Assembly (NCBI GenBank): GCA_964514585.1
Contig: CAZETU010000010.1
Coordinates: 1-11,589, forward strand
Direction: 5' to 3'
DNA length: 11,589 nt
DNA from: Candidatus Woesearchaeota archaeon
GTDB lineage: Archaea > Nanobdellota > Nanobdellia > Pacearchaeales > GW2011-AR1
Shown here: piece after piece, positions 615 through 5,153 of the stretch
Layout of the letters: every line of letters begins with the position of its first letter
Numbering within the stretch: position 1 is the first letter of the stretch
The notes under the pieces: model-generated
Database searches by the model: none
What the model was told of the DNA's origin: nothing
Seen by the model: the letters and a program-made list of their open reading frames with translations, nothing else
Position numbers and translations under genes: made by a program

Positions 615-1574
615 ATGACACCAAAAACAGAGAATCCAAAAATCAACGATCTCATTTTCCGAGAATTAATTAAACGAGGATACTCCCTAGAAGGCAATAC
701 AAGAATATGGAACATCGCAGATTCAAAATTATGGTACCTAACTCCGGAGCAAGCTCAATCGTTCTTGGACCTAGAAGAAGAAGAAGAATACAAAAAAACT
801 GTAACCCAACAAGAGCTAGATTTAATTAGCAATAATATAGACGAAATTTTAGGAAAATTCGGGAACGAACCAATTAACATAATTGACATAGGCTGTGGAG
901 ATGGAAAGAAAGCTGCAATGTTAATTGAAAAATTCAAAGGAACAAAAATAAGATATTGCCCAATTGACATAAGTAGTTATATGGTAGAAAAAGCAATAAA
1001 GAGAGTAAATGAAATAAGCACAGTACAAGAAGTTGTAGAATTTCAATGGAATATTTCAGACTTTGAAAATATAGAAAACATTTCCATTTTATTAAGACAA
1101 GGAGAATACAAAAAAAATCTTTTCCTTCTATTAGGAAACACATTAGGAAATTTCGAAATCAATGAACTTCTTTATGAGATTAGAAGCTCAATGAAAGGCG
1201 GAGATTTTCTATTAGTAGGAAATGGACTAGATCATAGGAAGCCAGAGGCAATATTAAACTCATATAATACAGATCATTTCAATAGATTTTCAGTTCATCC
1301 ATTATTACAATTAGGATTAAACAAGGAAGATGTTGAATTCGGGGTCAGATTTAAAAATTCCCGTATAGAATCTTTTTATACAATCAAGGTTCCCAAAAAA
1401 ATATCCTTTTTAGGGAGATCAATGAAATTCGAGGCAGGAGATCAAATAATAGTAATAGTCTCATACAAATACAATAAAGAAGATTTCATAGGCTTTATGA
1501 ATCTTTATTTCGACGATGTTATGGCAAAAGTCTCAGAGGACGGATCATATGCCCTAGCTCTTTGTAAAAAATAA
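615..1574 (+). CDS. egtD: L-histidine N-alpha-methyltransferase family (EgtD-like) SAM-dependent methyltransferase
   Basis: SAM motif I IIDIGCGDGKK, PIDIS, LLLGNTLGNF and GDFLLVG match EgtD-family motifs. N-terminal SKLWYLTPEQAQSFLDLEEEEEY parallels the EgtD 'SKYFYD..GS.LFE.I...PEYY' segment. Substrate not proven. Confidence 0.75.
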   Translation: MTPKTENPKINDLIFRELIKRGYSLEGNTRIWNIADSKLWYLTPEQAQSFLDLEEEEEYKKTVTQQELDLISNNIDEILGKFGNEPINIIDIGCGDGKKAAMLIEKFKGTKIRYCPIDISSYMVEKAIKRVNEISTVQEVVEFQWNISDFENIENISILLRQGEYKKNLFLLLGNTLGNFEINELLYEIRSSMKGGDFLLVGNGLDHRKPEAILNSYNTDHFNRFSVHPLLQLGLNKEDVEFGVRFKNSRIESFYTIKVPKKISFLGRSMKFEAGDQIIVIVSYKYNKEDFIGFMNLYFDDVMAKVSEDGSYALALCKK

Positions 1575-1988
1575 TCACTCCAACCCCTTCTCATTCCAGT
1601 CAACCATTGTTCCATTCCGACCAGCATTCTTTTCGCTAAATCCTTCAGGATACCGCTTCTTCAATTTTTCAACATTACCATCCAAAATCTTCTGCATATC
1701 CCAATCGAAAAAATTGCAAATCATCGCAATGTACCACATCACGTCCCCAATATTTTCCTTTATTCCTTCCTTCTGATCATTATCATGCATAAACGTCTTC
1801 TTAATACAACTCGCAACATCCCCAGCCTCACCAGTAACGCCAAGTCCCCACGTCATTATCTCCTCCTTCGGCGTCTCAAAATCCTTCCGAGCAGTCATCT
1901 CACACGCCTCCTGATACTCCTTCAAGCTCCCAGAATCAACTTTCTCCAAAATCTCCTGTATCTTTTCGACCGCAGTCACCTTATCCAT
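1575..1988 (-). CDS. MazG-like nucleotide pyrophosphohydrolase
   Basis: GLGVTGEAGDV...KK...ENIGDVMWYIAMIC...NVEKLKKRYPEGF is the small MazG-like signature. A TATA box (TTATAAAG on the - strand) lies about 23 nt upstream. Confidence 0.85.
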   Translation of the reverse strand: MDKVTAVEKIQEILEKVDSGSLKEYQEACEMTARKDFETPKEEIMTWGLGVTGEAGDVASCIKKTFMHDNDQKEGIKENIGDVMWYIAMICNFFDWDMQKILDGNVEKLKKRYPEGFSEKNAGRNGTMVDWNEKGLE

Positions 1989-2033
1989 AACAACCCAAAA
2001 TATCTAAACTTTATAACAATTTATATTCTAAAA

Positions 2034-2420
2034 CTAGCATTTCTCAAAAAGCAATTTTGCCAAACCCCGAACATCAGAGAGTCCAAATGAATAAGAAAAA
2101 TCAAGATTGTCAATCAACGCATGGCCCAAAGAATTCTCATCCGCAAAACCATATACCTTATCCACAAATATACGAAACCCATCAATAAATGTCTGATTCC
2201 TAGCAAGCTGAATTCCAACAGGACAAATAATATCAGAGTCAGCAAATTTACCCGCATCAAGTTTCTCATCGGTTTTTAATTCATTCATAAGTCTATTCGA
2301 ATATCCAGAATCGCGACTAGTCCCAGCAACAGCTCCAAACGCAGACTCAATATCTTTTTTGTCCACTGAAATCACAGAGTAACAATCGTCTTTCTCGGGG
2401 ATCAATATTTTAGGTTCCAT
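2034..2420 (-). CDS. Hypothetical protein (128 aa)
   Basis: Open frame with native-looking codon bias. GGAGG lies just upstream of the ATG at 2420 (MEPKIL), so the start was moved from 2462. Confidence 0.65.
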   Translation of the reverse strand: MEPKILIPEKDDCYSVISVDKKDIESAFGAVAGTSRDSGYSNRLMNELKTDEKLDAGKFADSDIICPVGIQLARNQTFIDGFRIFVDKVYGFADENSLGHALIDNLDFSYSFGLSDVRGLAKLLFEKC

Positions 2421-2483
2421 AAAAATACCTCCAAAATTAGTTTTAAAAGAATTATACTCCAATTACAACCAAGGTACAGTTTC

Positions 2484-3665
2484 TCAACTAGTCATAATCT
2501 CAATCCCATCACGATGCTTCAGGGGATGGTCCTTACCAACGGGCTGCTTTGTTCTAACATCAATCGCCTTAACAAACTTATCCCCAATGTCTGTATGTAA
2601 ATGATACGCAAAATCAAGAGCAGTCGAGCCCTCGGCAAGCAAAAAACAATCCGGCAAAACATTACCCTTACTGTCACTCAACTTAGAGCCAGCCGGAAAA
2701 ATCGCAATATACCTCAACAAATCAAAAACAGCCTTATCCAAAACATCCTGAACGCCAGTCGACCCAAAAACCTTCAACACATTCTCCCTAATCGACTCTA
2801 AAGCCACCTTCTGCTTCTCATTAACCTTATCTTCATTAATAACAAAATCACTTGCCCCCTGAGTATACTCAATCATCCCAGCACCAGCAGCCTGCCTCAA
2901 AGAAAGCTCACTATCAGCCGAACAAGCAATCATCATAATATCAGGAAATTCAGCCTTCAACCTCTCAATATTTTCCTTAGCCCCAGACTTATCAATCTTA
3001 TTAGCCGCAATAACCATCGGCTTCGTAGAATGCCTAAGTGTCCGTGTAAAATTCGACAAATCCTCTTCGCTCCAAGTAGCCGGCTTTTCAGAATCCAACT
3101 TCAACTGTATCAAGACAGACTTAATATCTTCCTCACTAACTCTCAGTCCCGAAAACTGCTTAGAAACTGATTTCGCAAAATCCTGCTTCGTCGTCTGAAT
3201 CGTCCTAGAAAACTTATCCCAAACTTTCTCAAATATTCCACGATACCACTTGTTCAATTCATTCTCCAACATTTTCACATCTTCAACAGGGTCCCCAGTT
3301 CCTTCTCTTCCCTCAATATCCGTAGTCCCAGAAGCATCCACAACCTGAATAAACAAATCCGCCTGCCTCAAATTATCCAAAAACTTATTGCCCAAACCTT
3401 TTCCCTCACTAGCCCCCTCGACCAAACCAGCAACATCCATCAATTCAACAGGAACAAATCTAGTCTCTCCAGTACAAAACCCAGTTCTAGGGTTACACTT
3501 AACATTCAACTCTTTACAAAGAGAGTCAACCCTAACATATCCAATCCCATGATTAGGCTCAATCGTCGCAAACGGATAAGAAGCAATCAAAACATCCGAC
3601 AGCGTAGCTGCCTTAAACAAAGTCGACTTCCCACACGATGGTTTTCCTACTAATCCAAGCAACAT
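2484..3665 (-). CDS. ychF: Obg-family redox-regulated ATPase YchF, archaeal type with TGS domain
   Basis: G1 GKPSCGKS, G2 YPFATIEPN, G3 DVAGLV, G4 ANKID, and a C-terminal TGS domain (GSTALDFAYHLHTDIGDKFVKAID). Confidence 0.93.
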   Translation of the reverse strand: MLLGLVGKPSCGKSTLFKAATLSDVLIASYPFATIEPNHGIGYVRVDSLCKELNVKCNPRTGFCTGETRFVPVELMDVAGLVEGASEGKGLGNKFLDNLRQADLFIQVVDASGTTDIEGREGTGDPVEDVKMLENELNKWYRGIFEKVWDKFSRTIQTTKQDFAKSVSKQFSGLRVSEEDIKSVLIQLKLDSEKPATWSEEDLSNFTRTLRHSTKPMVIAANKIDKSGAKENIERLKAEFPDIMMIACSADSELSLRQAAGAGMIEYTQGASDFVINEDKVNEKQKVALESIRENVLKVFGSTGVQDVLDKAVFDLLRYIAIFPAGSKLSDSKGNVLPDCFLLAEGSTALDFAYHLHTDIGDKFVKAIDVRTKQPVGKDHPLKHRDGIEIMTS

Positions 3666-3758
3666 GTTACTAGTGAGAATAGGTAGTTTTTAAAAACTAA
3701 GGTTGGAATCATTGGTAACAATGTATGTACATTTTAATAAAATTTAGGCCCATAATTA

Positions 3759-4052
3759 TCAAAAAGAACGTGAAAGGTAATAAAAAAGCAATAAAACTAC
3801 TATTATCTTAAGAAGTTGTATAATTTGTTGGCTTTCAGTTAATGGTTCCTTGGTTTTTTTTGATTTACCCTTCTCTGTATTCTTAGAAATCTTTTTTGTT
3901 TTCTCTTTCATGCTTTCTCTCTCTATTAATTTTTTATATTTTTCTGGATTTTCTTGCATATCATCAAAACAAGTTCTACAATATTCTCCATCAAAATCTT
4001 CATAGCCCTCCAAAAATCCTAACTTCTTCTTACAGAATTTACAAATACCCAT
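3759..4052 (-). CDS. Small hypothetical membrane-anchored protein with N-terminal CxxC...CxxC Zn finger
   Basis: CKFC and CRTC pairs, a Lys/Glu-rich linker and a C-terminal hydrophobic helix (IIQLLKIIVVLLLFYYL). TTTTTATA lies about 23 nt upstream on the - strand. Confidence 0.6.
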   Translation of the reverse strand: MGICKFCKKKLGFLEGYEDFDGEYCRTCFDDMQENPEKYKKLIERESMKEKTKKISKNTEKGKSKKTKEPLTESQQIIQLLKIIVVLLLFYYLSRSF

Positions 4053-4090
4053 TCAACCAACAAGCTAAAAGACTATAAAAATTTTTAGCA

Positions 4091-4209
4091 TGAGCCTACG
4101 GAGATTTGAACTCCGGACCTCTGGCTTTCTTCGAGTGAAGAAACGATAAGATTCAATTGAATCTCACTCATATAAGACCAGCGCTCTAACCTGGCTGAGC
4201 TATAGGCTC
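4091..4209 (-). tRNA. tRNA-Ile(UAU) with 44-nt intron at canonical 37/38
   Basis: Minus strand reads GAGCCTA-TA-GCTC...GAGC-G-CTGGT-CTTATA|intron|A-GCCAG-AGGTC-CGGAG-TTCAAAT-CTCCG-TAGGCTC-A. The 7-bp acceptor stem is perfect, D, anticodon and T arms are intact, the discriminator is A, and no CCA is encoded. Confidence 0.92.
4127..4170 (-). other. tRNA intron with relaxed bulge-helix-bulge motif
   Basis: Outer helix GAGTGA/TCACTC, two 3-nt bulges, and central helix CTTA/GAAG (3 Watson-Crick pairs plus an A.G mismatch). Contains the perfect 16-bp palindrome agattcaattgaatct. Confidence 0.8.
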
Positions 4210-4230
4210 CCAAAACTAAACAAAGTCGAA

Positions 4231-4240
4231 GATATAAAAA
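4231..4240 (-). promoter_or_regulatory. TATA box of tRNA-Ile
   Basis: TTTTTATATC on the - strand about 22 nt upstream of tRNA position 1. Confidence 0.65.
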
Positions 4241-4274
4241 TCTATCTATGTCGTAAATAAAACATTAAGGTTAA

Positions 4275-4423
4275 AGTGAAGAAACGATAAGATTCAATTG
4301 AATCTCACCCATAAAATGAATTTCGGAACCCAATTTTAATTGGGCGAGAAGATTCGTTTTGTTAATTTTGTTAACAAAATTTAACATAAGACCAGCGCTC
4401 TAACCTGGCTGAGCTATAGGCTC
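4275..4423 (-). pseudogene. Duplicated tRNA-Ile(UAU) 5' half plus intron, with 73-nt insertion and no 3' exon
   Basis: 4386-4423 is identical to tRNA positions 1-36 (4172-4209). 4275-4308 is identical to intron sequence 4134-4167. An extra 73 nt occupies 4313-4385. No T arm or 3' acceptor strand follows. Confidence 0.75.
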
Positions 4424-4429
4424 CCAAAA
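4386..4429. repeat. 44-bp exact direct repeat of 4172-4215 (offset 214 bp)
   Basis: ataagaccagcgctctaacctggctgagctataggctcccaaaa occurs at both positions, with partial similarity (taaacaa, gatataaaaa) continuing at the same offset. Confidence 0.95.
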
Positions 4430-4444
4430 GTAAACAATAAATGA

Positions 4445-4454
4445 GATATAAAAA
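4445..4454 (-). promoter_or_regulatory. TATA box of the duplicated tRNA 5' half
   Basis: The same gatataaaaa as 4231-4240 at exactly the same spacing from the tRNA-like 5' end, although the intervening spacer has diverged. Confidence 0.6.
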
Positions 4455-4525
4455 GCTTGTTATCCTCGATGCAAAACCAACTAAATCATAGCAATTCATT
4501 TAAACCAACCAAACTAAATTTATAC

Positions 4526-4747
4526 ATGAGGTGTAACATAAAAGTACAGCCAAGTTCTGGAAGACAAGAAATCCAAAAATTCATAGACGGCAAAATCCAA
4601 AAAGTATTTCTGAAAAAACCAGCCAAAGACAACAAAGCAAATCAAGAGCTAGAAAAGTTTCTATCAAAGCACCTAAAGAAAAAAGTAATAATCATTAAAG
4701 GTCACACATCAAAAAATAAAACAATAGAGATACTAGATGCCAATTAA
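4526..4747 (+). CDS. DUF167 (YggU/UPF0235) family protein
   Basis: IKVQPSSGRQEI...VFLKKPAKDNKANQELEKFLSKHL...IIKGHTSKNKTIEI matches the family pattern. The start was moved to the ATG at 4526. Confidence 0.85.
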   Translation: MRCNIKVQPSSGRQEIQKFIDGKIQKVFLKKPAKDNKANQELEKFLSKHLKKKVIIIKGHTSKNKTIEILDAN

Positions 4748-5153
4748 ATATCACCAAGCCCCAGATATAAAAGAAATTTCCGAAGAAGTAGTTAAGAAAT
4801 TAGAATGGGACCACGTTCTTCTAGAGCACGTCGCTTTCATTAGAAGCACGGGCTCAAAAGCTAGAAGAACAATAGCAAGGTGTCACGCCCTCGGCAAAGC
4901 AATGCAAATAGGCATGGGCCGAAAAAAAGGATTCTATCTAATCGAAGTAATTTCAGAAAAATTCGACAAATTACCCGACGACGAACAACTAAAAGTAATA
5001 ATCCACGAACTAATGCACATTCCAAAATCCTTCGGCGGCGGGTTCATTCATCACGATAAAGTCCACGACGCATCAGTCGAACACGTCTTCAATCACTACA
5101 CAAAACTAAAAAGACAAGATAATCCTCTAAACGACGAAATAATATGGCTCTAA
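4737..5153 (+). CDS. Putative zinc metallopeptidase (HExxH, archaeal/phage-type)
   Basis: RSTGSKARRTIARCH...YLIEVISEKFDKL...VIIHELMHIPKSFGGG. Overlaps its neighbours as an operon. Confidence 0.8.
   Translation: MPIKYHQAPDIKEISEEVVKKLEWDHVLLEHVAFIRSTGSKARRTIARCHALGKAMQIGMGRKKGFYLIEVISEKFDKLPDDEQLKVIIHELMHIPKSFGGGFIHHDKVHDASVEHVFNHYTKLKRQDNPLNDEIIWL

Follow-up and report, generated by a model that had tools for sequence, protein, structure and literature searches.

Split tRNA genes have been described in Nanoarchaeum equitans (Randau et al. 2005, as recounted in bioRxiv 10.64898/2026.05.13.725050). In Caldiarchaeum subterraneum, a 5' fragment of tRNA-Thr(GGU), named tRNA-Thr-F, lies upstream of the intact gene and shows heterogeneity in the population (Sugahara et al. 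2012, PMC3293823); it has been read as a product of insertion/recombination and as a possible stage on the way to split tRNA genes (PMC3293823). Partial tRNA genes also border integrated elements, where they form the att direct repeats of SSV-type and pNOB8-type integration (PMC9897764, PMC3293823). Finally, reused or putative mobile promoters have been reported in prokaryotes (PMC3575422). In current models of intron gain and splitting of archaeal tRNA genes, the starting material is a gene fragment next to an intact gene, and few cases show both alleles, with and without the fragment, in one natural population.

The locus analysed here is such a case, in a DPANN lineage. The 5' half of a tRNA-Ile(UAU) gene stands upstream of the complete gene, and its distinctive features are that the break falls exactly at the anticodon/intron boundary and that the stranded half retains its promoter. 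Among the readings offered by the first-pass annotation, that of an att scar or a decaying tandem duplication is the one favoured by the evidence: the duplicate is absent from relatives, polymorphic within the species and located at an inversion breakpoint. The upstream half is likely to be a non-functional fragment that a recent structural event left at the only tRNA-Ile(UAU) gene in one species of Woesearchaeota-like (DPANN) archaea. Fragments of this kind are known, and the present one, recent and probably neutral, adds a new lineage and an unusual anatomy.

Anatomy of the locus

The window (the whole stretch of DNA that was analysed) is an entire contig of 11,589 nt from a MAG of 1.04 Mb in 18 contigs, 89.7% complete and with 37% G+C. 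A scan with Rfam models recognises a single tRNA in it, the complete downstream gene (copy B), while the upstream fragment (copy A) is unrecognised as a tRNA (Table 1). Copy B has the anticodon loop CU-UAU-AA and an intron of the canonical archaeal form, inserted at 37/38 with a 3-nt bulge, a 4-bp helix and a second 3-nt bulge. When paired manually on the sequence, its central helix consists of C32-G, U33-A, U34-A and A35xG, and its flanking helix of GAGUGAG/UUCACUC. Both helices show compensatory changes among relatives, since those with TCTAAGAAA have the A35-U pair restored, and a GAC/GUC compensation is seen in the flanking helix. ARAGORN finds no tRNA in the window by default and, when introns are allowed, calls copy B a tRNA-Ser(tga) with a shifted splice register. 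This identity was rejected, the variable region being only 5 nt long and the Ser register disrupting the bulge-helix-bulge motif; because of the Rfam match and the geometry of this motif, copy B is assigned to Ile(UAU). Since the other relevant tRNAs found in the genome by ARAGORN are two with CAU and one Ile(GAU), copy B would be the sole decoder of AUA. By the same program, five tRNA genes of this genome are predicted to have introns of 10-80 nt. There is a warning for annotation here, as a standard tRNA finder misses or misnames the intact gene and the fragment could pass for a split-tRNA half.

Table 1. Features of the tRNA-Ile(UAU) locus in window coordinates
Feature	Position	Strand	Remarks
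Promoter and leader of copy A	4424-4457	minus	TATA box 4454-4446; leader of ancestral type (comparison with relatives)
5' exon of copy A, Sprinzl positions 1-36	4386-4423	minus	38/38 identical to copy B
Segment of the window allele missing from the single-copy allele	4172-4385	minus	Exactly 214 nt; comparison with contig L083
Insert between exon copy and intron copy	4313-4385	minus	73 nt; member of a two-hairpin element family; no match to copy B
Copy of A37 and intron nt 1-37 (of 44)	4275-4312	minus	37/38 identical to 4171-4134; one A to G change
Filler between truncated intron copy and copy B TATA box	4244-4274	minus	31 nt; no match to copy B
Promoter and leader of copy B	4210-4243	minus	TATA box 4240-4232; derived block TCGACT in leader
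Intact tRNA-Ile(UAU) gene (copy B)	4091-4209	minus	44-nt intron at 37/38; Rfam tRNA, 58 bits, E 1.2e-10
Intron of copy B	4127-4170	minus	44 nt, after position 37; canonical bulge-helix-bulge

Copies A and B align without gaps over 72 nt of the minus strand (4457-4386 versus 4243-4172), at a spacing of 214 and with 64/72 identical positions. The eight mismatches are all found ahead of the tRNA: one is at the edge, six form a block that reads CATTTA in copy A and TCGACT in copy B, and one is a G/C difference. The identity of the exons is part of an exact run of 44 nt that is common to both copies, and a repeat of this length within 11.6 kb is far above chance expectation. The TATA box TTTTTATAT is identical in sequence and spacing in the two copies, and in copy A its distance to +1 is that of the intact gene and of relatives. 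The first-pass annotation is thus borne out in describing a second copy 214 bp upstream, with unchanged tRNA positions 1-36, the same TATA spacing, a diverged spacer and no 3' exon. It was also right that most of the intron is retained, although it overlooked the 73-nt insert that separates the exon copy from the intron copy.

The 142 nt between the exon copy and the second promoter are made up of this insert, the 38-nt intron copy, which ends 7 nt short of the 3' splice site, and the 31-nt filler, after which come the copy B TATA box, the leader and the complete gene. Because the insert follows the exon copy, position 37 of copy A reads G. The filler bears no likeness to the upstream flank of copy A, to the rest of the genome, to 401 genomes of the order or to viral contigs. 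Nothing convincing as a donor for the filler, the copy B leader or the 5' half was found in 41 relatives, the 401 order genomes and viral contigs; one 31-nt, 87% match in a relative (G016) was rejected as a T-rich chance match with no tRNA nearby.

Alleles and relatives

An arrangement of this sort, in a short (11.6 kb) MAG contig of a species with a variant allele, might have been created by an assembler stitching two strain variants in tandem. Contigs from other samples were located through exact neighbouring proteins, and a count of junction strings covered 19 contigs. The duplicated structure is represented by all of its junction strings in 10 assemblies/samples from ENA and JGI, and the window is matched at 100% identity over 4040-4540 in six contigs that were compared directly. 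The exact exon-to-element junction string had no match in a search of JGI metagenome contigs, and protein-anchored look-ups then recovered the structure. Moreover, the two copies share exact runs of 44 and 34 nt, below the k = 141 given in the ENA contig names. Misassembly, a concern raised for this locus at the outset, is exceedingly improbable in the face of this recurrence.

A single contig of 631 nt carries the other allele (L083; ENA ERZ27315654, k141_85320). Its 559 nt of flank are 100% identical to window 4386-4944, and the next stretch corresponds to window 4171-4100, with the promoter, leader and exon of copy A running directly into a normal intron and 3' exon. This allele has one gene, under the A-type promoter. 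Since this contig is without exactly 214 nt while its flanks are identical, the tRNA-Ile(UAU) locus is polymorphic within one species. The boundaries of the extra segment may slide within the 44-nt identical core, and a contig of the L083 type could also arise by a secondary deletion through recombination in this core, or, being short, could be a minor chimeric path. The duplicated allele is seen in 10 complete assemblies and the single-copy allele in this one contig; however, because 100% identity fits one clonal population sampled repeatedly, the frequency of the duplicated allele says little about selection.

Outside this species, the duplicate is absent from all 17 relatives compared, 16 congeneric genomes and one metagenome contig (L072), which answers the question of its conservation raised by the first-pass annotation. 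A single tRNA-Ile(UAU) gene with the same type of intron is found at the 16 congeneric loci, in the closest genome (G043) and on contig L072, and the introns of the latter two are identical to that of copy B. Position 37 is A in 17/17 aligned genes, as against G in the upstream fragment. In the divergent leader block, relatives are CATTTA-like, as is copy A, and unlike the TCGACT of copy B; the copy A leader as a whole is also the closer of the two to the consensus of relatives. Because the leader block of relatives resembles that of copy A, it is copy A that holds the native promoter.

In relatives, the genes follow one another as MTase, tRNA, GTPase, DUF167 and metallopeptidase. The block from the tRNA to the GTPase is inverted in the window (615-5153 region), and the fragment consequently abuts DUF167 at the right-hand inversion breakpoint. 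Elsewhere, tRNA-Ile(UAU) lies between the methyltransferase and the GTPase in collinear order in L010, L013, L015, L021, L022 and L028, it alone is inverted in L011 and L017, and several congeners have extra genes inserted 3' of it. The tRNA-Ile(UAU) locus is rearrangement-prone. A 97-aa CxxC...CxxC protein without a Pfam match is encoded between the tRNA and the GTPase (window 3759-4052, minus strand); it has no tblastn match at the 16 congeneric tRNA-Ile loci or on L072 and recurs without change in 24 public contigs from the same species.

The insert and its two-hairpin element family

The 73-nt insert matches three places in another congener, and a covariance model (R1) was built from these three sequences and the insert itself. 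It scores the window copy at 89.7 bits (4303-4389, minus strand), which is the only copy of the element in the source genome, both with R1 and as a single nhmmer match. The model finds 14 copies in 7/49 congeneric genomes, a sporadic distribution. The element is ~85 nt long and consists of two covarying hairpins with the core ACGGAATCTTCTC ... TTCCGAAATTCATCTT-ATG. Compensatory changes are seen in 18/23 pairs, and 90% of cells in the alignment are paired compared to 24-48% when the partners are slid, although both figures come from an alignment fitted to the model, which biases them towards structure. In one genome two cores stand in tandem (L047, G043:C28:42843-43003).

All copies but one (13/14) end at an ATG, and in at least five this ATG starts a long ORF for an unrelated protein, e.g. 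TatD, a kinase, a GTPase, PolB or a membrane protein. Comparing filled with empty sites for two leaderless genes (TatD and a YlqF-like GTPase) shows that the element went in downstream of the native TATA box and upstream of the ATG. Most of the copies with a preserved ATG have an A/T run, e.g. TTTAAAA, as the loop of their second hairpin; it is located ~23-30 nt upstream of the ATG, the place of a TATA box, and the window copy has the A/T run AATTAAAATT 20-29 nt ahead of its ATG, near the TATA position of other copies. The two-hairpin element may be a mobile promoter cassette. At the tRNA locus, the ATG it precedes is made of A37 and the first two bases of the intron. At another site (L045/L107, G045:C2:140539-140633), the element stands after residue 212 of a YlqF-like GTPase ortholog and not before a start codon.

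Its two hairpins, and a YCAT that precedes every copy on the opposite strand, brought to mind a miniature derivative of IS200/IS605. This candidate was rejected for now, as TnpA, which is found in 12/49 congeneric genomes including the source genome, co-occurs poorly with the element (there is no TnpA match in 4/7 genomes that carry it) and the ends of the IS200 copies in the source genome are unrelated. The source genome has two IS200-type elements of 669 nt that are 99.7% identical (G000:C5:30963-31631 and 59408-60076); in both, the frame of the Y1 transposase is interrupted by one TGA and the ends are unrelated to those of the two-hairpin element. The latter has no Rfam match at E up to 1 and no match in viral contigs. 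A frame of 38 codons that runs across it (4388-4272) and is called as a gene in some assemblies is read as chance, because hairpin length and frame vary among copies of the element.

Splicing and possible functions of the fragment

Could the promoter-bearing half be put to use? At the 5' splice site of copy A, U36 is followed by G and the first hairpin of the element, without a bulge-helix-bulge motif, and the sequence after the half shows no complementarity to UUCACUC. The element is AT-rich and self-folding; a complementary leader or trailer for copy A was not found, and the element has no partner elsewhere in the genome. This bears on the proposal of the first-pass annotation that copy A is a 5' half of the Nanoarchaeum type, trans-spliced to a separately encoded 3' half, for which there is a 5' half with its own promoter in a group of archaea, the DPANN, that includes the classic split-tRNA organism. 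However, an intact cis gene lies 214 nt away, neither an orphan 3' half nor a third copy of the gene turned up in the 1.04-Mb, 89.7%-complete genome when searched to E 10, and what follows the half is an AT-rich element shared with promoters of protein genes rather than a GC-rich complementary leader. As an explanation of this locus, trans-splicing is scarcely credible.

A second proposal was that copy A serves as an alternative 5' exon, its transcript reading through copy B and the half being joined to the single 3' exon with the removal of ~259 nt. Thermodynamically this is possible: the promoter is intact, the exon with its part of the anticodon stem is identical, and in the minimum-free-energy fold of a 4423-4091 transcript the acceptor and anticodon strands of copy A pair with the 3' exon. 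Against it, the element after the 5' splice site cannot form the flanking helix of a bulge-helix-bulge motif, and the genome has a sole match for the tRNA-splicing endonuclease EndA (G000:C4:65505-66023), of 172 aa and with one catalytic domain, which by size would be of the alpha4 type; this type is reported not to cut non-canonical motifs (PMC5829648). The product would in addition have G37 where A37 is invariant in the aligned genes, and T-runs lie in the stretch from one copy to the other. The tRNA is already supplied by copy B, and the extra half can be dispensed with, as the single-copy allele shows. Use as an alternative exon is therefore very unlikely. A further scenario is that of a tRNA gene caught mid-split, in which the element struck the ATG at the anticodon/intron boundary and the 5' half, having kept its promoter, would be transcribed and still joinable to the 3' exon. 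The chances of this are slim, but if true the locus would show a natural population in which a living intermediate towards split tRNA genes of the Nanoarchaeum type is segregating.

The first-pass annotation also took the exact retention of exon and promoter as a hint of selection. The exon and TATA box are indeed intact, but the hint is weak, since the probability of no change in the exon is 0.018 if all nine mismatches are counted as independent and 0.18 if the 6-nt block is counted as one event. Selection might maintain such a fragment for an RNA that acts as a tRNA half or a decoy, or for an additional upstream promoter that serves the tRNA or the divergent DUF167 gene. This regulatory role would be in keeping with the intact TATA box, with an allele common enough to be present in at least 10 assemblies, and with the A/T run of the element at a TATA-like distance from the ATG. 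We regard it as unlikely, given that the fragment is unconserved outside this species, that a single-copy allele exists and that repeated sampling of one clone could make the allele look frequent. Altogether, as judged from sequence, a function of copy A is not supported by conservation, by the single-copy allele, by the splice motif or by the predicted type of EndA.

Origin of the duplicated allele

Our preferred reading, a non-functional fragment left by a recent structural event, would run as follows. Relative to the single-copy allele, the window allele would have gained 214 nt at the anticodon/intron boundary, consisting of the 73-nt two-hairpin element, the truncated intron copy, the filler and a second TATA box, leader and 5' exon. 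The promoter and 5' exon at the end of this segment would restore the essential gene downstream, as copy B; the original promoter and 5' exon would be stranded upstream, as copy A, without a 3' exon. Since tRNA-Ile(UAU) is the only AUA decoder found, we infer that an insertion here survives only with an intact copy kept. Transcription from copy A would yield either a tRNA 5' half with the element attached or a long 5' leader on copy B, to be removed by RNase P.

Three routes may be envisaged for the origin of the segment: (i) recombination with, or integration of, DNA of related or foreign origin that brought in a replacement for the 5' part, as occurs at att sites, (ii) tandem duplication of part of the locus, with later insertion of the element and the block substitution, or (iii) one complex event of template switching. 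That the element has been inserted elsewhere, as seen in the two comparisons of filled and empty sites, and is present only once in this genome supports a scar. No integrase or mobile-element body was found between the repeats or within ~1.5 kb on either side (from the MTase to DUF192, with unnamed ORFs), and viral contigs gave no matches. What counts against a pure scar is the intact TATA box of copy A at the right distance, the 44-nt identical run, the prevalence of the duplicated allele, the read-through fold that pairs copy A with the 3' exon and the lower of the two probabilities, obtained under independent mismatches.

Comparison with known systems

As in N. equitans, a stand-alone 5' half with its own promoter ends beside the anticodon in a DPANN archaeon; the present locus differs in having an intact cis gene, and neither a separate 3' half nor a complementary leader pair. 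The resemblance to att-type scars extends to a partial tRNA direct repeat, restoration of the intact gene on one side and an allele with an empty site, represented by L083 and by the single-copy relatives. Unlike in these scars, the repeats are neither separated nor flanked by an integrase or element body; they also take in the promoter, and a block substitution distinguishes the two leaders.

A further parallel is tRNA-Thr-F of C. subterraneum. In both cases, the 5' fragment and its upstream sequence form a direct repeat upstream of an intact, intron-bearing gene, and a single natural population contains both alleles that have the arrangement and alleles that lack it. In tRNA-Thr-F, however, 1.8 kb including a recombinase gene separate the fragment from the gene, whereas here there are 142 nt and no recombinase gene; the break is at positions 24-27 in the former and at the anticodon/intron boundary in the latter, where part of the intron has been duplicated too.

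The insert has its own counterpart in the mobile promoters mentioned above (PMC3575422), with which it shares the occurrence of near-identical short sequences upstream of unrelated genes and a sporadic distribution among genomes. It differs from them in that its family has two hairpins kept by covariation, is confined to Woesearchaeota/Nanoarchaeota genomes and, in leaderless archaeal genes, ends exactly at the ATG. It opens a separate and possibly newer topic, that of a structured insertion element placed precisely before the start codons of unrelated genes.
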